A DNA stretch of 64,000 bases from Escherichia coli (GCF_030013595.1 NZ_CP122768.1), one strand, 5' to 3'. Positions 24,317-52,596 are shown, numbered from the stretch's first letter. Translations and numbers: made by a program. Notes: generated by a model from the sequence alone, not told the origin.

Positions 24317-28499
<4,183 letters not shown>

Positions 28500-28781
28500 T
28501 CAGCACGCTGGCTCATGGATTAAGCACCTGATTGCAACCGTTTTCACTTTCCGTGCTTCTCCTAAAGACAGAAGCATCGACTTCGTGTAGGGTTTGCCAG
28601 CAAATTTATTTATCAACCGTCTTACAGACGCTTCCATTCTGGTTAGTGGTAGCGATGATGCTATGCATTAAAACCTTGAAGCCTGCGCCTGGCGCGGTCA
28701 GGTCGGTGTCGCTATGGCAACAAGCCTAAAGGCATAACCCGACAGGGATAAGACGAAAAATCCGAGATTAGTTAACCATAT

Positions 28782-29939
28782 ATGAATCCAGTACCCGCGC
28801 AACGTGAATATTTCCTCGACTCCATCCGCGCCTGGCTGATGTTGTTAGGGATCCCTTTTCATATTTCTTTAATCTATTCGAGCCATACATGGCATGTGAA
28901 TAGCGCCGAACCGTCATTGTGGCTGACCCTTTTTAATGACTTCATCCACTCGTTCCGCATGCAGGTATTTTTCGTTATATCCGGGTACTTTTCCTACATG
29001 CTTTTTTTACGCTATCCCTTGAAAAAATGGTGGAAAGTACGTGTCGAACGTGTAGGTATCCCGATGTTAACAGCCATCCCCCTACTGACATTACCGCAAT
29101 TTATTATGCTGCAATACGTCAAAGGGAAAGCGGAAAGTTGGCCTGGCCTGTCATTGTATGACAAATATAATACGTTGGCCTGGGAATTAATATCACACCT
29201 GTGGTTTTTACTGGTGTTAGTAGTCATGACGACGCTGTGCGTATGGATATTTAAACGCATCAGAAATAATTTAGAAAATTCTGATAAAACGAATAAAAAA
29301 TTCTCGATGGTAAAACTATCGGTGATTTTTTTGTGCCTCGGCATCGGCTATGCGGTAATAAGAAGAACGATTTTTATTGTGTATCCGCCCATTCTGAGTA
29401 ACGGCATGTTCAATTTTATTGTCATGCAAACGCTATTTTATTTGCCGTTCTTTATCCTCGGCGCACTGGCTTTCATTTTCCCTCACCTTAAAGCCTTGTT
29501 TACCACGCCGTCTCGTGGCTGTACCCTTGCAGCAGCATTGGCGTTTGTCGCTTATTTACTCAACCAGCGCTATGGCAGTGGCGATGCCTGGATGTACGAA
29601 ACCGAGTCGGTGATCACCATGGTCCTCGGTCTGTGGATGGTAAATGTGGTCTTCTCCTTTGGCCACCGTTTGCTTAACTTCCAGTCAGCGCGGGTGACTT
29701 ATTTTGTTAACGCATCGCTGTTTATCTATCTGGTTCACCACCCGTTAACGCTGTTTTTCGGCGCATACATTACACCGCACATCACCTCCAACTGGCTTGG
29801 TTTTCTCTGTGGCCTGATATTCGTAGTAGGGATTGCGATAATTCTGTATGAAATTCATTTACGCATCCCGTTACTGAAGTTTTTGTTCTCTGGTAAACCG
29901 GTTGTTAAGCGTGAGAACGATAAAGCACCAGCCCGTTAA
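28782..29939 (+). CDS. opgC: glucan succinyltransferase OpgC (MdoC)
   Basis: 385-aa polytopic membrane acyltransferase [37 protein letters not shown]... Confidence 0.9.
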
Positions 29940-29946
29940 GCCGCGT

Positions 29947-43008: not shown

Positions 43009-44397
43009 TTATAGATAGTATTTAAAGCCCAAATAAAGGCCTAACGTGTCGCCAAAAAGCGCAAATTCAGAATACCGACTTCCCAGCGCGCTATAGCCAC
43101 CGGCATAGGCTTCAAGCTGGTTACTGATAGCGCTGAGCGGCGTGGAATAATGCAGGCCCAGCAACGTGCTGCCATCAATGAGATTGACCACCAGCGAAGG
43201 CTGCAGCGTCGACTCTCCCGCCAGCGGCAGACTGGCCCAGGCGTTCAGATAGTGCTTACCCTGCAGCATCCCCTGATTGGCGGTATTGCTGATTTCTGAA
43301 GCCATCAGGTATTTGTAAGAATCAAATGCCTGATCCAGTGGCGCATAGCCGGTTGTGGTATTGAGGAAGTCAATTAACTCGCGCTGCTGACGCTGTTCAG
43401 CGCGCGAATACCCCTCGCTCTGAAAGTAATACTCAACGCCAAACACGCTGAAAATATCACTGGTGTACTGCCCACCCAGCGCCAGCTCCACGCCGCTTTC
43501 ATCTTTCGTTTCATAGAGCGAATCCGGAAACTGATATTCCTCGACCTGCGCCGTCTCACGGTGGGAAAGATGCCGCCATTGTTGGGAGCGGTGGTAGGCT
43601 GCGTCGACATTCAGCGTCAGCTGCGGGGTGTAGTGATAACTGTCAGACAGCGCGAGTGACGGCGATGGCCCGAGCCGCACATTGACTGTCGGCGTGTGCT
43701 CACCAAAGCGATGATCGCTGTAGCTCAGCAGATAGGCTTCATCGCTGTTTCCCTGCTGATTAGCCGACCAGTTGCCAGACGTCACATAGCGTTTGTCGAT
43801 GGTGGCTAACTTCGGTATGACGCTCGCCGAAAACGCATAATCGCGTGTATCCACGCTCATTTTTGCGCCCCACGATGACGCCTGATACGCCGATGTCATT
43901 TTGGGATCGTGCAAACGCGTCGACTGGAATCCGGTGTAATAATGCGTTTGCAAATCAGAAGGCGAACGCAAAAAGAACATTCCTGACGGCGCGGCAAATT
44001 TGCCTGCTTCAAATTGAACGCTGTCCGAGGCGCTATAGACCAGACTGAGGCGGTTAATTAACGCACGCGTGCGGCTATCATCCGTTTCGAATTTCCCTGC
44101 GAGTTTAAGCGCATATTCGTTTATTCCATACAGATTGAGCTTAAGGTCCAGCGTATTGTCGATTATCGAACAGCCACTGTTGATGCCAATCCCCGCCTCC
44201 TGATAACCGTTGTGACGAGTGTAGGGATTTTTGCCTGCAATCTGCCAGGCCGAAGCCTGTTTATTGACATAAGACACCTGCTCGTAAAGCGTCACATCGC
44301 TGTTTTGTGCCACCTCGTCACCTGACAGGCAATCCGCCTGTACCGTCAACGGCAGCACAACACACAGCAACGAAGAGATCTTCAGCGCACGTTTCAT
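43009..44397 (-). CDS. putative outer-membrane beta-barrel protein
   Basis: 462-aa ORF with N-terminal signal peptide MKRALKISSLLCVVLPLTVQA, Tyr/Gly/Ser-rich alternating pattern, C-terminal aromatic-rich ...LGLYLGFKYYL; 4-nt overlap with upstream gene. Confidence 0.5.
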   Translation of the reverse strand: MKRALKISSLLCVVLPLTVQADCLSGDEVAQNSDVTLYEQVSYVNKQASAWQIAGKNPYTRHNGYQEAGIGINSGCSIIDNTLDLKLNLYGINEYALKLAGKFETDDSRTRALINRLSLVYSASDSVQFEAGKFAAPSGMFFLRSPSDLQTHYYTGFQSTRLHDPKMTSAYQASSWGAKMSVDTRDYAFSASVIPKLATIDKRYVTSGNWSANQQGNSDEAYLLSYSDHRFGEHTPTVNVRLGPSPSLALSDSYHYTPQLTLNVDAAYHRSQQWRHLSHRETAQVEEYQFPDSLYETKDESGVELALGGQYTSDIFSVFGVEYYFQSEGYSRAEQRQQRELIDFLNTTTGYAPLDQAFDSYKYLMASEISNTANQGMLQGKHYLNAWASLPLAGESTLQPSLVVNLIDGSTLLGLHYSTPLSAISNQLEAYAGGYSALGSRYSEFALFGDTLGLYLGFKYYL

Positions 44398-45182
44398 TTC
44401 GCACCTCGCTGAATATATTCTTTGGTGAAATGAAACTCCGGCAGCGATTCCAGACGAACATCGCTGTACTCCATCACTGAATAGTTATTGCCGTGACGGA
44501 CATCGTTAACGGTGATTTTCATGGGTCGCGTTTTCCCCAGCACCGGCTGGAAATCCTGATACAACACTTCTTTTATTAACTGGTCATCCTGCGAATAATA
44601 GGCCGCCTTCCACGGGCGATTATCACCGTCTTTTTCAACGTAATAGATAACCTTCGGCCAGGTGATATCCGCCGATTTACGCACCAGTGCGAGCTTGTAA
44701 CACTGCTTTTCAGCACAAGAGACTTCCCCCACCAGGGTCGAGTCATAGGCATATTCAAAGTTAGTGACAATGACATCGCCGTTAGAGATTTGCCCAATTA
44801 ATCTTTGTTGCCGTGAAATAGGCATCGGACGTCGCAATTCCGGCGTGTAAAACCATAAATCGTACCAGTCGGAAAGCATGATTTTTCCTTTGTCTCGCGG
44901 CGGATAAATAAAACGCACCAGCGAGCGTGCATCCGCTTTTTCATTACCCTGCGGTTTCATAAAACGCATGGAAATATCGAGGATCTGTTTATTCTCTGGC
45001 TGGGTTGCGCCCGCTTTATATTCCGTTACCGTCAGCGTGTAACGAAACGGTTTATTCGGCGAACGAATTTCATCAGCGCGACGAATTATCTCCAGCGCCT
45101 TATTATCTGTGCTCGCCGCCTGAACGCACGACGTAGCGAGCCACAGGCAAGCAAACCACTTGCCGTAAAAAGCCATATTCAT
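44394..45182 (-). CDS. secreted LolA-like (outer-membrane lipoprotein-sorting fold) protein, putative
   Basis: 262-aa ORF with signal peptide; size and context (next to FtsX/ABC pair) suggest a periplasmic lipid/lipoprotein carrier; fold assignment not verifiable by eye. Confidence 0.4.
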   Translation of the reverse strand: MNMAFYGKWFACLWLATSCVQAASTDNKALEIIRRADEIRSPNKPFRYTLTVTEYKAGATQPENKQILDISMRFMKPQGNEKADARSLVRFIYPPRDKGKIMLSDWYDLWFYTPELRRPMPISRQQRLIGQISNGDVIVTNFEYAYDSTLVGEVSCAEKQCYKLALVRKSADITWPKVIYYVEKDGDNRPWKAAYYSQDDQLIKEVLYQDFQPVLGKTRPMKITVNDVRHGNNYSVMEYSDVRLESLPEFHFTKEYIQRGAK

Positions 45183-45190
45183 AATCAGTC

Positions 45191-46501
45191 CTACGAGAAT
45201 TTAAATGCGTCAGAAATATTCAGCCGGGAAGCACGTAAAGCCGGTAACACAGAGGCTCCTGTTGCTGTCAAAATGGGTAATACCACCGTCACCCAAATCA
45301 ATTCCGGGTTACTGGTTTTTATAAAGGCGGTATAGCCGATGGTTTGTCCAGGCGATGGCGGCATCGCAATACCATAAAGATTAATAATCCAGGCTAGCAC
45401 GCCCCCCACCATCAGGCTACCGACTGCGCCAATCACACCAATAAAAATACCTTCCGTCAGAAACAAGCGCGTGACATGAAGAGGCTTCAGACCTATGGCA
45501 CGCAGAGTGGTTATTTCACGGGTGCGCTCAACAATGTTCATTGCCATCGAATTGCCGATCATGAAGATGACAATCAGCGCAACAATCAGCTTGATGAAGA
45601 AATAGATCCCCGACAGTAACCCCTCAACCTGTTGATAAAAGAGTGAAACATCACGCCAGTCTTTGACCACCAGCGGCAAATGATTGCGTTCTATAAACTG
45701 ACGCAGCTTTGCGCTAAACGCCGCGGTGTCATCCTCTTTAAGCAGAATAAGCACTTTGCTGACGCCATCCGTACCCATCATGCGCTGCGCAGTGTCCAGC
45801 GGGATCTTCATCGCGACATCGTCATAATCTTTAATGCCTGACTCAAAAATGCCACGCAGTTTTAGCGACAATGCGCCCTGCCCGCCCGCCGTGTTGACGA
45901 CCATCACATCCAGCCAGTCGTCGTATTTCGCATTCAACGTTTTCGCCAGGCCGCTGCCCAGGGTGATTTCATCACCTTTTACCCGGGAAAGATCGCTCCC
46001 CGCGATAATCTTATCGAACGATCCCAGCTTTAAAGCGGGTAACGGCTCGACACCCAGCGCAGAGAAATAGCTGGAGGTTTCGCTCTCGTAATGTGAAATT
46101 ACGCCAGTAAACTCAAGTTGCCCGGAGAGCGTGGAAATATCCGTCGCCAGCGTCGGGTCCGACAAAATAGCTTTCTTTAACGCCGCATAATCGGCAATCA
46201 GGCTCTTATTTTTATTCGACGTTTCAAAATAGTGCTGATTGTAAATCTGTACATGACCAATATTGGTGCGAATCGTCTGCTCTTTCAGGATCCAGAAAGA
46301 GTAATCAATAAATCCGCCATATAAAAAAATTGCCACGCCGCCCAATACAATGGCAGTTATAGTAGAAAAAGAGCGACGCTTGTGGCGAAAGAGATTCAAA
46401 AATGCAAATTTGACATCTCGTGAATAAAACAGAAGCTGATAAAACACAAAAAACAGAATCAGCAGCAGAACGCAATTAACAGCTAAAATTTCCCCGGACA
46501 T
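45191..46501 (-). CDS. ABC transporter permease, FtsX/MacB/LolCE type
   Basis: 436-aa ORF: N-terminal TM helix, large periplasmic domain, C-terminal cluster of three TM helices (…FFIKLIVALIVIFMIGNSMAMNIVERTREITTLRAIGLKP…). Confidence 0.75.
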   Translation of the reverse strand: MSGEILAVNCVLLLILFFVFYQLLFYSRDVKFAFLNLFRHKRRSFSTITAIVLGGVAIFLYGGFIDYSFWILKEQTIRTNIGHVQIYNQHYFETSNKNKSLIADYAALKKAILSDPTLATDISTLSGQLEFTGVISHYESETSSYFSALGVEPLPALKLGSFDKIIAGSDLSRVKGDEITLGSGLAKTLNAKYDDWLDVMVVNTAGGQGALSLKLRGIFESGIKDYDDVAMKIPLDTAQRMMGTDGVSKVLILLKEDDTAAFSAKLRQFIERNHLPLVVKDWRDVSLFYQQVEGLLSGIYFFIKLIVALIVIFMIGNSMAMNIVERTREITTLRAIGLKPLHVTRLFLTEGIFIGVIGAVGSLMVGGVLAWIINLYGIAMPPSPGQTIGYTAFIKTSNPELIWVTVVLPILTATGASVLPALRASRLNISDAFKFS

Positions 46502-47158
46502 TTACTCACCTTTCATCAGCGGCAGCAGTACCTGGGTTAACTCTTCACTATCCCATTCTGGTACAACATTAAAATTCTGCGTCAGCGACTGCGCAAGCGC
46601 GGCGTTTTGCCCTTTAATTTGCGCCAACAACGCATTCGCGCGGGTGGTGTCCTTGCAGTGACGTAATGCACGATAACGCATCGCCAGAATATGGTCGCGA
46701 ATCGTTGTCGCCCATATCGCCCGGTCAGCCAGCATGTGCTCGGTGTCCTGGACTGTCACCACGCAACGCCCTGAATCTGCGGGTAAATAGGCATCTACGC
46801 GGGCACGTAAATAACGTACGCGTTGATTTTTCTCCTGCAAATCCACCGCTTCATCCAGCCAGAAAAAGCCGCTTTTTGCGTATTCTGAGGCATGGATAAA
46901 ATCGTTTGTTGCCGCATAACCGTCCGCCTGACGCAGTAAGCCATAGGCGTAAAAAACCAGCGCCACCACATTGTGCCTGGCTTCATACTCTTTCTTTAAC
47001 GCTTCGGTCAGCGTCGCCAGCGCGGCAGGCTGCGCCGGAAGCCCTTGTTGCAGAACCTGGTTAACGGCGTCGGGAGTTGCCGCGTAAATCTTCGGGGCCA
47101 AAAACGCCGCATACAAAAAGACGCCGATAAGCAAAAATCCTTTATGCATCTGAGTCAT
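46502..47158 (-). CDS. secreted hypothetical protein
   Basis: 218-aa ORF with signal peptide [31 protein letters not shown]...; no recognisable motif. Confidence 0.45.
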   Translation of the reverse strand: MTQMHKGFLLIGVFLYAAFLAPKIYAATPDAVNQVLQQGLPAQPAALATLTEALKKEYEARHNVVALVFYAYGLLRQADGYAATNDFIHASEYAKSGFFWLDEAVDLQEKNQRVRYLRARVDAYLPADSGRCVVTVQDTEHMLADRAIWATTIRDHILAMRYRALRHCKDTTRANALLAQIKGQNAALAQSLTQNFNVVPEWDSEELTQVLLPLMKGE

Positions 47159-47849
47159 GAATCAATACTCCATCCTGAATTTCAACCACTCGCCGAGCCC
47201 GCGCTTTTAATTCGCTGGAGTGCGTGGAAATAACAAATGTGGTGCCGGTCTGCTGATTAATCGTCAACAGCAGGTCCAAAATAGCCTCGCCGGTTGCCAG
47301 GTCTAAATTTCCCGTCGGTTCATCGGCAATGACCACCATCGGTTCGTGTGCCAGTGCCCGGGCGATGGCGACACGCTGTTGTTGACCGCCCGATAGTTGC
47401 CCAGGTTTGCGATCGCCAAAACCGCTTAATCCGACGCTATCGAGATAGTGCAGCGTCCGTTCAGTGGCTTCTTTTTTACTGAACTGACCATTAAGCACCA
47501 GTGGGAAATAAACGTTATCGAAAACATTTAATACCGGCATAAGGTTAAAAAACTGAAAAATAAAACCCAGATGTTTTCCACGAATCACAGCTAACTGCTC
47601 TTCAGGCAGTTGGTTCAGTAATTTATTTAAAAATATCACCGTTCCGCTGGTCGGTTTATCAATACCCGAGAGAATATTCAACAGAGTACTTTTACCACTG
47701 CCTGACGGCCCACACAGTGCGAGAAATTCGCCTTTATTGATATCAAGATTAATGCTTTTAAGCGCATCAACCTTTCCTGCCCCGGCACCATAACACTTGT
47801 AAATGTTGCTAAGTGAAATAGCGGGCAACGATTTAATAGTAGATTGCAT
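47142..47849 (-). CDS. ABC transporter ATP-binding protein (LolD/MacB-type)
   Basis: Walker [13 protein letters not shown] signature [15 protein letters not shown], Walker [13 protein letters not shown]; start trimmed to [21 protein letters not shown]. Confidence 0.88.
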
Positions 47850-47859
47850 ACGACTGTCG

Positions 47860-48813
47860 TTATCCTTCAAGGTATTCAAGGTCAAAGTAGTGATAACCAA
47901 ACTGTTTATCGGCAATGACCGTACGCATTTTTCCACCGGGCTGAATATGACGGGTTAAATAATCCATACTCAGCGCGGGCGTCAGACAACCGCTTTCTCC
48001 GTAATGGGCTACCAGGTCGATAACGCCAGCAGCAGGCCGGGACGGCATTTGTCGCCGTTCGCTGAAGGCCATGACATCAATATCCGTAGCATGCTGTGGC
48101 GAAGTGCCGGAATGATATTCCCCGCATTGCAGCCTGATGGCGCTCTCACGCTGGCTGAGAATAAAACAACCCACTCGTTCAACAGATAAATTCACCTCAT
48201 CAGCGCGACGGGGGAATAAACGCTTAGGCGGTTTACCCACATCCTCTTCAGAGAATACCAGTACCGGAATTGCCCGATAGGCAGCGCAAATAACCACGTT
48301 ATCGAATACATCCCAGGCGAGATAATCCTGCGCCATACGCAGCGCCTGAACGAATGCCTGTTTTTCGCCACGAATTTTGCAAGTCGGCTCCGTTATCGAA
48401 AACTTCTTAAGTAAATTCTTGGGAAGCGTATCAATAGTGGCGATATGCAGCGCACTGGAAATTTTTTCAAACGGACCGGATTCGCCCCAGGAATCGGCAT
48501 AAATAAATGCCGTGCGCGATTTCATTAACTTCATGCGCTCTTTAGTCGGCATTTGTTGTAATGCAGAATCGGTTACCTGCTCCATCGCCTCAAGGTAAGG
48601 CATATATTGCGGATTACGGATCCGTTCTGGCGCATAAATATCGTTCTCCACGCCAAAGCGCTTCAGCCCCCAGCCATTAGCACGGGTGCCGTATAATCCT
48701 CTTTCGTACATATGTGCTTCCCAGGCGTTGAGCCAGGTCGGCTGATAAAAATAAAAAATGTCGTCCGGTTCCGTAAGCGCCCAGGAAGACAGGTAGATAC
48801 TCTTTTCCGTCAT
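47860..48813 (-). CDS. hypothetical protein
   Basis: 317-aa ORF MTEKSIYLSSWALTEPDDIFYFYQPTWLNAWEAHMYERG...; no motif recognised; 4-nt overlap with upstream KS gene. Confidence 0.45.
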   Translation of the reverse strand: MTEKSIYLSSWALTEPDDIFYFYQPTWLNAWEAHMYERGLYGTRANGWGLKRFGVENDIYAPERIRNPQYMPYLEAMEQVTDSALQQMPTKERMKLMKSRTAFIYADSWGESGPFEKISSALHIATIDTLPKNLLKKFSITEPTCKIRGEKQAFVQALRMAQDYLAWDVFDNVVICAAYRAIPVLVFSEEDVGKPPKRLFPRRADEVNLSVERVGCFILSQRESAIRLQCGEYHSGTSPQHATDIDVMAFSERRQMPSRPAAGVIDLVAHYGESGCLTPALSMDYLTRHIQPGGKMRTVIADKQFGYHYFDLEYLEG

Positions 48814-50033
48814 TTCGCGCGCCCCGCTTGCATATTTGTCATGACAACGCCAATAACTGAACCATCGACACCCACACCAACCTTCAGCAAATGGCGTTTG
48901 CTATGGTTTGTCACGCTGCCGTCCGTAAGTACCAGCGAAGCCATGCTGTCGATAATGACGTCGTTGCCAACAGGTGCGATCAGTTGATAATGCGTCAACG
49001 AATGGTGGCCAATGATCAGATCGACAACACCAGATCCGGTTGCGGTATAGCCGATCTGCCCTTTATAGGCGAGAACGGGGATCCGCCGCTCCCCTGCGAA
49101 CATGGTGATGGCTTTGGCTTCCGCGTTATCGCTCACTGCCGAACCGTTGCCGTGTGGAAGAATGGCTGCAAGATCATCCAGCGCAATTTCAGCCTGCTTC
49201 ATCGCGGCCTGCATGACCTTGTGCACGTTAGTGCTAAGCCAGGAGGCATCGTTGCTGCGGCCCGCGCTGATTTGGGTGTAAGTCGTTTGCACCCTTACGC
49301 CCTCACTTTGTTGACGCGCCCGGCGGTGATGAGCGCTTTCCAGTAGGAGCGCGCTAAAACCTTCTGCGAACACCACACCTTTACTGTTTTCACCAAACGG
49401 CTGAACCTGTTCGCTGTCCAGCATCGATTGAGTTTCCAGGAACCAGATGTCCTGGGTTTTAATTTTCGAACAGTTCAGCACAATCGCGAGATCAATCCCG
49501 CCCTGCTCAATGCCCTGCGTCGCCAGATGCACCGCAGTCAGTGACGAGTTACTGGTGCAGTTCATGTTAGGCGGCAAATACTGCAAGCGATATTTGCGCG
49601 CAAGATGGCTTGAGATCGTGTCCTGCGACATCTTTGAGGCATGCAGATTTGTGATGGATTGCGTTAAGTTGATATCTTCTACATCGTTGTAATTATAGAA
49701 AGATTTGTAATCCAACCCGTCGATACGCGGCCCAATACCAGTCAGGTAAACGCGAACGTTGCGCCCGGCCAGGCAATGCTTATCCAGCATTGCCTGTTCC
49801 AGGGCTTCGTCGATCAACTGAGACAGCAGGTCCAATGCGCTATCGTCCACCTGTTTCAACGTCGCCACTGACGGATTACCCTTAAACCCGCATTTAATGG
49901 CTTCCTCGTTGGAGGTAAACCAGGGTGTACGCGCAACGCGTTTCCCCTGTTTCAGATTGTCAATTAACTGCGAACAGTCTTCGGCATACGGCATCCACAC
50001 GCTGTAACCCGAAATAATAGCGGCATTGTCCAC
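48810..50033 (-). CDS. beta-ketoacyl-ACP synthase-like protein with partly degenerate catalytic triad
   Basis: ORF 48810..50099; probable GTG start at 50033; active-site Cys context NCTSNSSLTAVHLA (cf. TACSSSL..HLA), first His HGNGS present, second His position reads GQIGYTATG (Tyr in place of His). Confidence 0.7.
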   Translation of the reverse strand: MDNAAIISGYSVWMPYAEDCSQLIDNLKQGKRVARTPWFTSNEEAIKCGFKGNPSVATLKQVDDSALDLLSQLIDEALEQAMLDKHCLAGRNVRVYLTGIGPRIDGLDYKSFYNYNDVEDINLTQSITNLHASKMSQDTISSHLARKYRLQYLPPNMNCTSNSSLTAVHLATQGIEQGGIDLAIVLNCSKIKTQDIWFLETQSMLDSEQVQPFGENSKGVVFAEGFSALLLESAHHRRARQQSEGVRVQTTYTQISAGRSNDASWLSTNVHKVMQAAMKQAEIALDDLAAILPHGNGSAVSDNAEAKAITMFAGERRIPVLAYKGQIGYTATGSGVVDLIIGHHSLTHYQLIAPVGNDVIIDSMASLVLTDGSVTNHSKRHLLKVGVGVDGSVIGVVMTNMQAGRAK

Positions 50034-50037
50034 AGTC

Positions 50038-52596
50038 TTATCCCTTAATGACGAACGCGTAGTAGTTGCCGCCTTCCGTTGCGCCAACAAGCAGGACATG
50101 GTTCAGCGCAAGTTTCATCGACTGGCGTACAAAATTCACACGCTCATCAAAGAATTCCACCGTATTTGGAATCGCAGGTACTGCTTGCTTCTTAATGCAG
50201 TCAGTAATCACGGCGAGGTTAAGCAAACCAGCGGCAGAGGCGACAAAACCAAAGCAAGCGTTGTAGTTCACTACCGGCACCGCCGGGTTTTGCGCGGCGA
50301 AGGTGTTATAGATCGCGTCAATTTCGATACGAGAATGGTCATCGCTACCGTTGCTGGTACCACATACCAAATCAATATCGCCAGCAGAGATGCCCGCATG
50401 GGTAAGGGCGTGTTCAATGGCCAGCGCCATCGACGCGGATTTTTCTTCCAACAATGAGGCGTCGAAGTAGGTATTGCTGCATGACTTGCCGTAGCCCACC
50501 ACTTCCGCGAGAACCTCAACGCCACGCGCCGCAGCCAACTGCGGATCTTCCAACAGCAGCATGCAGGCACCTTCGCCCGGAACATAGCCCTGCGGATCTT
50601 TACCGTAAATCTGATAGTCACACGCCTCAGCCGTCATGTGGATCTTTTGCGTCACCGCATCCATATACAGCGACATAGACGGGAAGTACTCATCCGCGCC
50701 GCCAACTAATACCTGCGGTTGCAGGTTCTGCCGGACGATTTCATAACCGTAGGTCAGCGCGCCCAGCGCCGAGTTTTCCCCTGTCGCAAGCGTAGTGGTA
50801 TACCCTTTGATCCCTTCAGAGATCCCGCAGAACGTTGGGATCGCATTCATCAGCGAGCCAGGAAATTCCGACGTACGTACTTTGCGTGGATCGGGTTTCA
50901 GGCTTTGCAGATATTTGTAGGTGGTTTCCTGCGGACCACGGGACATCCCCATGATCATGCCCAGCTCATCGCCGTCGCGTTTGATTTTACGCTTCGCCTG
51001 TTCCAGCGCTTCGGTGAGTGCGATCAGGGCAAACGTGCCGCCACGGGTCGCTTTACGCGGGTCAAAACGACGCAGGTGTTTACGCGGCTCCAGCCCGGAA
51101 ACCTGGAACGTTTTGAAGTTGCTTGCCGTTTCCGGAAGCGTAGCGTCGCTGAAGCTGTACTCTTCATCAAACAGCTCGGCAAACTGGTTTGATTCATCCA
51201 GCACGGCCAGCAGCTCTTTGGCTTCTTCCAGCGTATCGTCCGGGAAGGTTACGCTACCCAGTTCAACGTGGTGGTCCTGCGCCCAGATGTTTTCCAGAAC
51301 CTGGTTGAGCGTGTGGCCAATTGCGGATACTGCACCGACGCCCGAGATAGCCACACGCTTCGAATCATAGGTACTGACCGGAATGGACGCGGGCTCCATG
51401 CTCAGGATCATGCAGCAATTGTTGCCGCCGAAGGCATAGTTATTCTTCATGAAGATGTTCACTTTGCGATCGCGAAATTCATTCGGCACATAGTCCAGAT
51501 CGCAATTCGGGCGTGCCTGGCTGAAATTCAGCGTCGGCAGTACGCGGTTGTCCGGCAGTGTTGCCAGACAGGCAATCAGTTCCACAATCCCCGCTGCGCC
51601 AATGTTGTGGCCAAAGTAAGATTTGGTGGAGCTCACCAGCAGTTTATCGTGGTTAGCGAAGACCTTTTTCATTGCCAGCGTTTCGATACGGTCATTGGCT
51701 TCGGTACCTGTACCGTGCGCGTTGACGTAATCGATTTGCTCTGGGGTTACGCCCGCATTTGCCATTGCCTTGTTCATGACCTGCACCGCTCCGCTGGCAC
51801 GCGGATCTGGCCCGGTTTCATGGAAAGCATCGCAGGAAGTGGCGTAAGAGAGGATCTCACCATAAATGGTCGCCCCGCGTGCTACGGCGTGCTCATACTC
51901 TTCCAGCACGATAGCGCCCGCACCTTCACCAATCGACATACCGGACTGACCCGAGAACGGCGTACAGGTGTCTGGATGCATGACATTCAGTGCGTAGAAT
52001 CCGGCAAAGGTCGGCAGATAGATGGGCTCAGTGCCCACTGCCAGCATGGTTTTGCTTTTACCATTCTGGATGTAGTCAAAGGCCATCCCCACGGCGTTCG
52101 GGCTGGCGGTACACGCGGTCGCCACCAGTTCAACCCCACCCTGTAAGCCCAGCAGCGTTGAAACGCTGGAACAACAGGATGAGAATGCGCCGGAAAAGAG
52201 TGCTTTACGCAGCGAGAAATCTTCCATGCGCTGTTCGAACAGCGGTAAAAAGGCCTCTGTACCCGCGGAGGAAACACCGACGATCATGCCTGTTTCTTTG
52301 AGAGTGTCACGGCTATCCATCAGGCCGGCCTGACTCAGCGCATCTTTACCCACTTTGTAGGCCCAGAGCGCTGCGTTATCCAGTGAATCGATAACATCTT
52401 CGTTCAGATCGGAGTATTCAATGTCATGCAACACTTCTGCCGCACGCGCATTTTCAAACCATTTTGCAAAGCGTTCGCTATCCTTAACGCCATTTTTTTT
52501 ATTTAATAATGCTTCCCGGAAATCCTGAATATTTTCCGCCAGTGAGGACAAAATCCCCAGCCCGGTAATAACAACTCTTTTCCTGTTCGTTTTCAT
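50038..52596 (-). CDS. di-domain beta-ketoacyl-ACP synthase (KS plus KS-like/CLF-like domain)
   Basis: 852-aa ORF; N-domain with ATACTAS (Cys), NAHGTGTEANDRIE and KSYFGHNIGAAG motifs as in FabB/FabF; C-terminal ~420 aa thiolase-like with weaker motifs. Confidence 0.8.
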   Translation of the reverse strand: MKTNRKRVVITGLGILSSLAENIQDFREALLNKKNGVKDSERFAKWFENARAAEVLHDIEYSDLNEDVIDSLDNAALWAYKVGKDALSQAGLMDSRDTLKETGMIVGVSSAGTEAFLPLFEQRMEDFSLRKALFSGAFSSCCSSVSTLLGLQGGVELVATACTASPNAVGMAFDYIQNGKSKTMLAVGTEPIYLPTFAGFYALNVMHPDTCTPFSGQSGMSIGEGAGAIVLEEYEHAVARGATIYGEILSYATSCDAFHETGPDPRASGAVQVMNKAMANAGVTPEQIDYVNAHGTGTEANDRIETLAMKKVFANHDKLLVSSTKSYFGHNIGAAGIVELIACLATLPDNRVLPTLNFSQARPNCDLDYVPNEFRDRKVNIFMKNNYAFGGNNCCMILSMEPASIPVSTYDSKRVAISGVGAVSAIGHTLNQVLENIWAQDHHVELGSVTFPDDTLEEAKELLAVLDESNQFAELFDEEYSFSDATLPETASNFKTFQVSGLEPRKHLRRFDPRKATRGGTFALIALTEALEQAKRKIKRDGDELGMIMGMSRGPQETTYKYLQSLKPDPRKVRTSEFPGSLMNAIPTFCGISEGIKGYTTTLATGENSALGALTYGYEIVRQNLQPQVLVGGADEYFPSMSLYMDAVTQKIHMTAEACDYQIYGKDPQGYVPGEGACMLLLEDPQLAAARGVEVLAEVVGYGKSCSNTYFDASLLEEKSASMALAIEHALTHAGISAGDIDLVCGTSNGSDDHSRIEIDAIYNTFAAQNPAVPVVNYNACFGFVASAAGLLNLAVITDCIKKQAVPAIPNTVEFFDERVNFVRQSMKLALNHVLLVGATEGGNYYAFVIKG

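Follow-up and report, generated by a model that had tools for sequence, protein, structure and literature searches.

The stretch of Escherichia coli chromosomal DNA analysed here (GCF_030013595.1, NZ_CP122768.1), 64,000 nucleotides long, numbered from its first letter and called the window below, carries adjacent minus-strand genes for ketosynthase (KS)-type proteins. We think it probable that this region is the condensing core of an orphan lipid pathway, a discrete (type II), highly reducing system like a polyketide synthase (PKS) or a fatty-acid synthase (FAS), with two pairs of the KS/chain-length-factor (CLF) type rather than three loose KS. On this reading the locus encodes two KS/partner pairs: KS1-KS2, which are fused, and the predicted pair KS3-X317, which are translationally coupled and occasionally fused. 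The original prediction, made from the DNA of the window, had recognized three KS-type domains in two genes. All three are real, and a fourth module, X317 (47860-48813), had been missed; it lies immediately beyond the coordinates of that prediction.

The KS1-KS2 fusion

The two open reading frames (ORFs) of the original prediction, of 852 and 429 aa, were both present on the minus strand, together with every motif quoted for them. The larger protein had been described as a canonical KS followed by a second, degenerate thiolase-like domain, and Pfam bore this out with two full ketoacyl-synt N+C pairs (PF00109+PF02801), at aa 6-358 and 413-811, here called KS1 and KS2. Its match to NCBIfam fabF had E=2.4e-134. 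It passed the cut-off of the NF005589 KAS II subfamily (429.9 bits against 387) and did not reach that of the TIGR03150 fabF equivalog (448.1 bits against 493.75). KS3, the product of the smaller gene, has one ketoacyl-synt N+C domain pair and scored 52.9 bits against TIGR03150. On these profile matches KS1, KS2 and KS3 are taken to be real KS-type modules, far beyond chance.

KS1, KS2 and KS3 were aligned to K-12 FabF and to solved structures. FabF residues C163, H303, K335, H340 and F400 correspond to Cys162, His294, Lys325, His330 and Phe389 in KS1. In KS2 the first four are replaced by Glu607, Gly746/Thr747, Asn779 and Phe784, and in KS3 they correspond to Ser161, His294, Lys324 and Tyr329; neither has an equivalent of F400, and KS3 has a G-x-(D/E)-G-S motif where FabF has its Phe400 gate. 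KS1 thus carries the residue set of FabF/KAS II (triad, Lys335 and Phe400 gate), which KS2 and KS3 lack, and the full Cys-His-His triad is not present in all three domains, so that the original prediction holds in its core.

A scan for the KS2 domain in one genome per species gave 54 loci, and four metagenomic loci brought the set to 58. KS1 and KS2 are fused in all 58 loci wherever the gene is intact. The five KS1 residues are unchanged in 120 of 120 fusion homologues. In the same 120 proteins the KS2 position equivalent to Cys is E in 82, Q in 11, I in 11 and V in 8 in the listed counts, with Ala in one remote cluster; there is no conserved Gln at this position, unlike the CLF of aromatic type II PKS. 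His is essentially missing at both His positions of KS2, the second being His in 2/120. KS2 also changes faster, its identity in remote clusters being 46-48% compared to 64-67% for KS1. KS2 therefore reads as a dead CLF-like partner domain tethered to KS1. The possibility that KS2 and KS3 are pseudogenes was ruled out, since the ORFs are intact and conserved across the 58 loci. In one locus, that of Serratia rubidaea NCTC12971 (LR590463.1), the KS1-KS2 gene is in four ORF pieces and the GcvT-like gene in two, which suggests frameshifts, by pseudogenisation or assembly errors.

KS3 and its Ser-His-Lys-Tyr site

The 429-aa ORF (48810-50099) begins at an in-frame ATG at 50099 that lies within the preceding KS1-KS2 gene. 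Full-length KS3 homologues are nearly all about 400-420 aa long, mostly 403-411; the RefSeq call is 407 aa, and an AAGGGA Shine-Dalgarno-like site lies 7 nt upstream of GTG 50033. Because the homologue lengths, the RefSeq call and the AAGGGA site agree, the 429-aa start was dropped; KS3 most likely starts at GTG 50033 and has 407 aa, fewer than originally predicted.

KS3 had been said to keep the context of the catalytic Cys and the first His, and to have Tyr in the place of the second His. The His (His294) and the Tyr (Tyr329) were as described; the Cys context was not. In three independent HMMER alignments to PKS ketosynthases and in two MAFFT alignments, Ser161 of NCT-S-NSS falls at the catalytic Cys position, the register being T-A-C-S-S-S opposite C-T-S-N-S-S, and Cys159 of KS3 is two residues upstream of Ser161. 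Among 118 homologues, Ser161, Asn162, His294, Lys324 and Tyr329 are fixed in 118/118. Cys159 is replaceable (C107/S7/G3/A1), and in remote relatives it is mostly Ser, Ala or Thr. As a candidate nucleophile Cys159 was ruled out, being replaced in 11/118 homologues while Ser161 is fixed.

When 1.84 billion representatives were searched with HMMER, stand-alone relatives of 27-36% identity came up. Ser-His-Lys-Tyr is kept in nearly all of them, as are the motifs S-A-S-x-S-S, H-G-N-G, Y-K-x-Q-x-G-Y and G-(D/E)-G-S. A Ser161-His294-Asp390 triad is a possible arrangement in KS3. Because Ser161, His294, Lys324 and Tyr329 are invariant and persist in remote relatives, KS3 appears to have a constrained, repurposed active site and not a decayed triad.

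X317, a predicted partner of KS3

The start of the next gene overlaps the KS3 stop (ATGA). Its product, X317, is annotated in RefSeq as 'ATP-binding protein' or 'hypothetical'; it has no Pfam or NCBIfam match, and BLASTP of X317 against the KS modules was non-significant. In a profile-profile comparison with the KS3 family, X317 residues 74-178 were collinear with KS3 67-188, the nucleophile-elbow half (P=4e-4). With hhalign the KS1 and KS2 families gave no significant match to X317 (P=0.14 and 0.39), the signal being with the KS3 family only. The AlphaFold2 model of X317, from a 39-sequence alignment, had pLDDT 88 and pTM 0.89. There is no nucleophile: Lys151 is at that position, after a conserved Arg148-Gly149-Glu150. 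The profile comparison and the model identify X317 as a fourth, cryptic thiolase-fold protein.

An AlphaFold2 model of KS3, a linker and X317 in one chain had pTM 0.89, with disorder confined to the linker. Its best PDB match was the PfaC KS-CLF didomain 6riw, which matched both halves (TMq 0.71); single KS chains gave TMq of about 0.45. The KS3 and X317 genes co-occur in 57 loci. Further, in P0230, a metagenomic protein of 784 aa encoded in a syntenic cluster, a KS3-like part (331 bits) and an X317-like part (226 bits) are naturally joined. That cluster (L062) has each of its KS/partner pairs as a fusion, and AcpS is at the cluster end, not at its start. Given the ATGA overlap, the co-occurrence, the didomain-like model and the natural fusion, X317 is predicted to be the CLF-like partner of KS3.

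It might be supposed that KS3 is a second catalytically silent CLF-type subunit, a structural partner or pocket-shaper only. The Cys nucleophile and the second His are missing, and KS3 evolves faster than the two other recognisable KS modules, with 34% identity at remote locus L004 compared to 48% for KS2 and 67% for KS1. We regard this as quite improbable. KS2, which is truly dead, drifts through E, Q, I, V and A at the Cys position, unlike KS3, in which the five residues fixed in 118/118 homologues are nearly always kept at 27-36% identity. KS3 also has a dead partner of its own in X317, and a CLF would need none. The original prediction, of KS paired with catalytically impaired KS-like partners, is therefore upheld for KS1-KS2, and KS3, with its invariant Ser-His-Lys-Tyr and its own partner, does not look like such a degenerate CLF-type subunit.

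A dedicated accessory operon

Seventeen closely spaced genes, with short gaps and overlaps, form one minus-strand operon running from 61400 to 41071 (ORF calls and RefSeq; Table 1). In the order of transcription, the 5' part encodes TpsA, TpsB, AcpS, a FabG-type ketoreductase (KR), a FabZ/ApeI-like dehydratase (DH), an acyl carrier protein (ACP) and a GcvT-like protein; the middle part encodes KS1-KS2, KS3, X317, a LolD-like ATPase and a periplasmic 218-aa protein; and the 3' part encodes a LolC/E/MacB-like permease, a LolA-like protein, a 462-aa signal-peptide protein, a FabD-like protein and YcdU. Searches with NCBIfam and Pfam and the RefSeq annotation found no enoyl reductase (ER), FabH, adenylating enzyme, thioesterase or acyltransferase among the 17 genes, and no glycosyltransferase or MMPL transporter. 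All NCBIfam FAS-equivalog scores in the operon were below their cut-offs.

The 3.8-kb region of the three KS modules was found at >=95% identity in 382/5426 complete E. coli genomes, including O157:H7 EDL933. In the RefSeq annotation of a 99.9%-identical genome the region is flanked by serX/ycdU and a fimbrial operon, and these flanks mark the site of O-island 47 (OI-47; z1528-z1556) (PMC8565820). The locus thus lies in an island of the accessory E. coli genome (O-island 47 of O157:H7), and KS1 is not in a core fab cluster but apart from the fabF of the K-12 fab cluster. The KS1-KS2 operon is dedicated and accessory, and itself supplies AcpS, ACP, KR, DH and malonyl transferase; because the region is in only 382/5426 complete E. 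coli genomes, it is not housekeeping fatty-acid synthesis. In the reviews of OI-47 that we consulted (PMC8565820 among them) the regulator GrvA is the sole island gene discussed. Our literature search found no paper on the OI-47 biosynthetic genes and no published function for them. Perna et al., in 2001, reportedly labelled the operon a putative polyketide or fatty-acid system.

Catalytic motifs of the KR, DH, ACP and GcvT-like proteins are conserved across loci, including the DH motif GHF...P.MPG....E..GQ and the ACP motif LDSVDATE, the latter in 55 sequences. The KR scored 184 bits, below cut-off, against the model for FlxB, the flexirubin short-chain dehydrogenase/reductase (SDR), and acpS starts 3 nt after the tpsB stop. 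The GcvT-like protein was below cut-off for both NF001567 (136.7 bits against 300) and TIGR00528 (101.5 against 235.85); its best PDB match was the T. maritima T-protein 1woo (E=8e-25), and its gene is in all 53 complete loci (see below). It is a true T-protein homologue, though a paralogue of housekeeping GcvT, which suggests folate-dependent one-carbon (C1) chemistry. The 218-aa protein, the 462-aa protein and YcdU had chance-level Pfam/NCBIfam matches only (Rubella_E2, PSII_Ycf12). From its signal peptide and aromatic C-terminus only, the 462-aa protein is probably an outer-membrane barrel.

Table 1. Coordinates of the operon genes, KS modules and active-site codons (window numbering, except for the last row)
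Feature	Coordinates	Strand	Description	Basis
TpsA	57588-61400	-	exoprotein	NCBIfam TPS domain and FHA repeat, RefSeq
TpsB	55880-57499	-	ShlB/FhaC-type	NCBIfam, RefSeq
AcpS	55496..55876	-	phosphopantetheinyl transferase of AcpS type; dedicated holo-ACP synthase	TIGR00516, 80 bits, above cut-off
KR	54721..55482	-	FabG-type ketoreductase (SDR); NNAG and S...YxxxK motifs	NCBIfam 3-oxoacyl-ACP reductase, RefSeq start
DH	54169..54717	-	FabZ/FabA-type (ApeI-like) dehydratase; His and Glu conserved	NCBIfam FabZ, Pfam FabA
ACP	53866..54147	-	dedicated, 93 aa; DSV serine conserved	NCBIfam ACP families
GcvT-like	52670..53830	-	aminomethyltransferase fold, folate-binding, 386 aa	NCBIfam, Pfam GCV_T and GCV_T_C
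KS1-KS2	50038-52596	-	852-aa ORF	ORF call
KS1	51382..52596	-	FabF-type KS domain, catalytically complete (aa 1-405)	Pfam, NCBIfam, alignments
KS1 Cys162	52111-52113		codon	
KS1 His294	51715-51717		codon	
KS1 Lys325	51622-51624		codon	
KS1 His330	51607-51609		codon	
KS1 Phe389	51430-51432		codon	
KS2	50038..51381	-	KS fold without catalytic residues (aa 406-852)	Pfam, FabF-structure alignments
KS2 Glu607	50776-50778		codon, at Cys position	
KS3	48810..50033	-	stand-alone KS fold, 407 aa	Pfam, PDB alignments, MAFFT with FabF
KS3 Ser161	49551-49553		codon	
KS3 His294	49152-49154		codon	
KS3 Lys324	49062-49064		codon	
KS3 Tyr329	49047-49049		codon	
X317	47860..48813	-	cryptic thiolase/KS-fold protein, 317 aa; predicted CLF-like partner of KS3	profile comparison, AlphaFold2 model
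Export module overall	43009..47849	-		NCBIfam, Pfam LolA_like, order conserved in related loci
LolD-like	47142-47849	-	ABC ATPase	NCBIfam
218-aa protein	46502-47158	-	periplasmic	sequence
LolC/E/MacB-type	45191-46501	-	permease (FtsX/MacB-type)	NCBIfam
LolA-like	44394-45182	-		Pfam LolA_like
462-aa protein	43009-44397	-	signal-peptide protein	sequence
FabD-like	42054..42998	-	malonyl-CoA:ACP transacylase	NCBIfam fabD, 179 bits, below cut-off; RefSeq
YcdU	41071..42057	-	inner-membrane; last operon gene	RefSeq; 4-nt overlap with FabD-like gene
KS3-X317 fusion gene	L062 6282-8636		subtype-B cluster	JGI 3300007188

Distribution and subtypes

The 54 loci of the one-genome-per-species scan belong to Enterobacterales, Acinetobacter, the Pseudomonas alcaligenes group and Paraburkholderia, and the set of 58 to Gamma- and Betaproteobacteria; genera with the cluster include Enterobacter, Klebsiella, Serratia, Proteus, Providencia, Morganella, Acinetobacter, Pseudomonas and Paraburkholderia. 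The whole core, AcpS and KR-DH-ACP-GcvT-KS12-KS3-X317, is present in 53/58 loci; in the remaining five the contig breaks off. Subtypes were counted in the 52 loci with enough upstream sequence. In 29 of these, genes for two-partner secretion (TPS) lie upstream of AcpS and there is no second SDR; in the remaining 23, subtype B, a second SDR follows the permease and there are no TPS genes. The two are perfectly mutually exclusive, with both present in 0/52 loci and neither in 0/52. The Proteus, Providencia and Morganella clusters have TpsA without TpsB, and neither the LolA-like nor the 462-aa gene is present in them. In five Pseudomonas loci (L050, L051, L053, L055, L057) the LolA-like, 462-aa and FabD-like genes are upstream of AcpS, not downstream, and the second SDR is followed by an extra KS-like gene on the other strand.

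The operon might be a redundant or auxiliary type II FAS that makes ordinary saturated or monounsaturated chains, by way of housekeeping FabI, for an envelope component such as a lipoprotein, lipopolysaccharide or TpsA. KS1 is FabF-like and over the NCBIfam KAS II subfamily cut-off, FabD-, FabG-, FabZ-, ACP- and AcpS-like genes are all there, the exporter is Lol-like, the tpsB-acpS gap is 3 nt, and TPS genes are present in 29/52 loci. This explanation seems to us unlikely. A plain FAS needs no dead CLF-like domain, no Ser-His-Tyr KS, no cryptic partner and no GcvT-like protein, and all four are invariant core. Further, FabH, FabI and acyltransferase are not in the operon, every FAS-equivalog score is under its cut-off, and the TPS genes are missing from 23/52 loci.

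Relation to known systems

The closest structural analogue of the fused KS-CLF is PfaC of the polyunsaturated fatty acid (PUFA) synthases, in which KS/CLF-like pairs occur (PfaC didomain, PDB 6riw). The omega_3_PfaA model scored 78 bits against a cut-off of 1010. PfaC acts inside a multi-domain megasynthase that has an ER, DH domains of the FabA type and several ACPs in tandem. As in PfaC, KS and CLF are in one polypeptide in the 852-aa KS1-KS2 and, in P0230, in KS3-X317. Sequence identity to 6riw is only about 10%, and the operon differs from the PfaC system by its discrete enzymes, its one ACP, the lack of an ER and its two separate KS/CLF-like pairs.

In the anammox ladderane cluster, amxFabF2, a FabF with an intact triad, pairs with amxFabFmut, a homologue with Cys and both His mutated, and the heterodimer decarboxylates malonyl-ACP and primes synthesis (bioRxiv 10.64898/2026.05.19.726425). 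KS1-KS2 is similar, an intact FabF-type KS with a dead FabF homologue. The anammox subunits are separate, whereas KS1-KS2 is fused, and a third KS of the Ser-His-Tyr kind is not described there; radical SAM enzymes accompany the anammox pair, and GcvT-like, Lol-like and TPS genes accompany KS1-KS2. The best PDB sequence match of KS1 was 9s5h_B (E=1.4e-77), and KS2 also matches 9s5h_C. That 9s5h may be the anammox heterodimer is an unconfirmed guess, as the preprint text holds no PDB codes. The original prediction had taken a KS with an impaired partner as a hallmark of type II polyketide and polyene systems, as opposed to housekeeping fatty-acid synthesis. The second half of this claim agrees with the accessory, dedicated operon; the first half was too narrow, given that such pairs also occur in PUFA synthases and in the anammox FabF-type pathway.

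In aromatic type II PKS (actinorhodin, 1tqy) an active KS is joined by a Cys-less partner, and both chains are detectable homologues of KS1 and KS2. KS1 scored about 245 bits against FabF structures and 185 bits against actinorhodin KS-alpha. Unlike the actinorhodin system, the operon has no conserved Gln in KS2 and no cyclases or aromatases, and it has a full KR and DH set. Unlike FabF/KAS II, a homodimer of identical active subunits, KS1 is fused to dead KS2. The features of KS/CLF systems are an intact triad in KS1 and Cys-less KS-fold partners in KS2 (Glu607) and, as modelled, X317 (Lys151). In KS-Q/KS-S loading domains and in FabB C163S the Cys is replaced and the KS fold kept, and these proteins decarboxylate malonyl-ACP or can still be acylated. 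They keep both His, whereas KS3 has an invariant Tyr at the second.

Closest in pathway logic are ApeO-ApeC/ApeR of the aryl-polyene (APE) clusters (PMC8358021) and the polyene type II PKS-like pairs, such as ishigamide Iga11-Iga12 (PDB 6kxd). In comparison to these, the operon is without aryl starter machinery, thioesterase, transferases and MMPL pump, and has one ACP, a fused KS-CLF, a GcvT-like enzyme and a second KS with Ser/Tyr, not Cys/His. The LolA-like protein is the only APE feature of its export, which here uses an ABC ATPase and a FtsX/MacB-type permease. A variant aryl-polyene (APE/flexirubin-type) pigment cluster, with KS1-KS2 as ApeO-ApeC and KS3 as ApeR, would account for the shared logic of a KS with a shortened CLF-like partner plus a second KS system (PMC8358021), for the KR, the ApeI-like DH, the lack of an ER and the LolA-like export protein, and for the 184-bit match of the KR to flexirubin reductase FlxB. 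We nonetheless find it highly improbable. ApeR forms a FabB-like homodimer and has Cys in its active site (PMC8358021), which the Ser-His-Tyr KS3 does not. No specific family, FlxB included, scored above its cut-off. The operon has no aryl-starter enzyme (AasS-like/adenylating ApeH, TAL, XanB2), has one ACP, not two, and has no thioesterase, glycosyl- or acyl-transferase or MMPL transporter. A GcvT-like enzyme is not known to belong to APE clusters. By gene content the cluster is neither an aryl-polyene nor an aromatic type II PKS cluster, and it does not coincide with the PfaC or anammox systems either.

A proposed pathway

The analysis itself shows the domain architecture, which residues are present and how far they are conserved, the synteny of the operon, the X317 fold and one natural fusion of KS3 with X317. 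In the pathway that we favour, of two KS/CLF-type pairs, we infer the dimer pairings, all enzymatic roles and the product. The ACP of the operon would carry the chain while KS1 extends it by iterative decarboxylative condensation, with KS2 giving the acyl pocket its shape, and the two would pack as a pseudo-dimer, as in other KS/CLF systems. Judged by its residues, KS3-X317 cannot be a standard elongating KS, because KS3 has Ser for the Cys nucleophile and Tyr for the second His, both strictly conserved. As the operon is otherwise without priming and release enzymes, one of those roles is proposed for KS3-X317: the pair may prime by decarboxylating malonyl-ACP to acetyl-ACP, or may carry out Ser-mediated acyl transfer or the release of the finished chain. 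The anammox ladderane cluster offers a precedent for decarboxylative priming, by a KS/CLF-like heterodimer of the FabF type (bioRxiv 10.64898/2026.05.19.726425), and there is also one for two KS systems within one polyene cluster (PMC8358021). KR and DH, with no ER, would give an unsaturated, possibly polyene-like chain, and for the GcvT-like enzyme the addition or removal of a C1 unit is possible. Transport of the product to the cell envelope would fall to the Lol-like ABC system, the LolA-like protein and the predicted outer-membrane protein; from the Lol-like machinery, the outer membrane is the suggested destination.

Several points weigh against this scheme. The KS1-KS2 pseudo-dimer is proposed from fusion and homology. 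For KS3-X317, the linker in the model was artificial and the alignment behind it was shallow, with 15 rows; AlphaFold is prone to packing any pair of thiolase-fold domains as a canonical dimer, and the natural fusion is on one metagenomic contig only. The Tyr at the second His position of KS3 argues against a simple decarboxylase of the KS-Q/KS-S type, because decarboxylation normally uses both His, and a Ser acyl-enzyme role for KS3 is conjectural. Housekeeping FabI could reduce enoyl intermediates, so that a missing ER gene is no proof of unsaturation. Finally, the subtype-B clusters carry a second SDR as well.

A bolder version, which we put forward as rather doubtful, is that KS3-X317 represents an unrecognised class of thiolase-fold heterodimer with a Ser-His-(Lys)-Tyr site for non-Claisen chemistry, for instance the transfer or release of the chain by way of an O-acyl-enzyme, or priming of a novel sort. 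A folate-dependent GcvT-like enzyme would work on an intermediate tethered to ACP, and the joint product would be a new C1-modified unsaturated envelope lipid, functionally coupled in E. coli-type clusters to TpsA, for example as lipid anchor, activator or cargo.

The end of the operon and its surroundings

YcdU is described as an 8-TM protein (PMC4951805). In 29 related loci its gene comes after that of FabD, and in one E. coli genome (that of hit H1) ycdU has an annotated frameshift. In K-12 the pseudogene ymdE, with acyltransferase-like domains, and ycdU adjoin an IS3 copy. They look like the cut-down tail (FabD-like and YcdU) of the operon, the rest of which has apparently been lost. A mastitis-genomics paper flagged ymdE-ycdU as 'MPEC core', and the operon context was not recognised there (PMC4951805).

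Beyond the operon, a tandem repeat at 40145-40937 (179-bp unit, 4.4 copies, 99% identical) overlaps the 3' end of tRNA-Ser(GGA) (40072-40159), where it starts, and occupies the whole interval as far as ycdU. This array has a high AT skew and gives a ladder of overlapping spurious ORFs on both strands. G+C is 0.38-0.45 at 28000-36000 and 62000-64000 of the window, compared to about 0.50-0.54 elsewhere, which suggests that these stretches are further horizontally acquired segments.

Significance

For decades this operon has been there to see in the genome of E. coli O157:H7. What were 'three odd KS domains' have become a defined architecture of two KS/partner pairs, one with a strictly conserved Ser-His-Tyr site, together with a fourth protein of KS fold, which escapes sequence libraries, and with a GcvT-like enzyme, an exporter to the envelope and, in half of the clusters, TPS. 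The Ser-His-Tyr ketosynthase with its invariant site and cryptic partner, the GcvT-like enzyme and the two-partner secretion link are the main points of interest. The cluster is present in many clinically and agriculturally relevant genera, and it is a tractable test case, with K-12 carrying the ymdE/ycdU remnant only. Its study could reveal a new envelope lipid, the role of a ketosynthase with Cys-to-Ser and His-to-Tyr changes, and folate-dependent chemistry in polyketide-like pathways.

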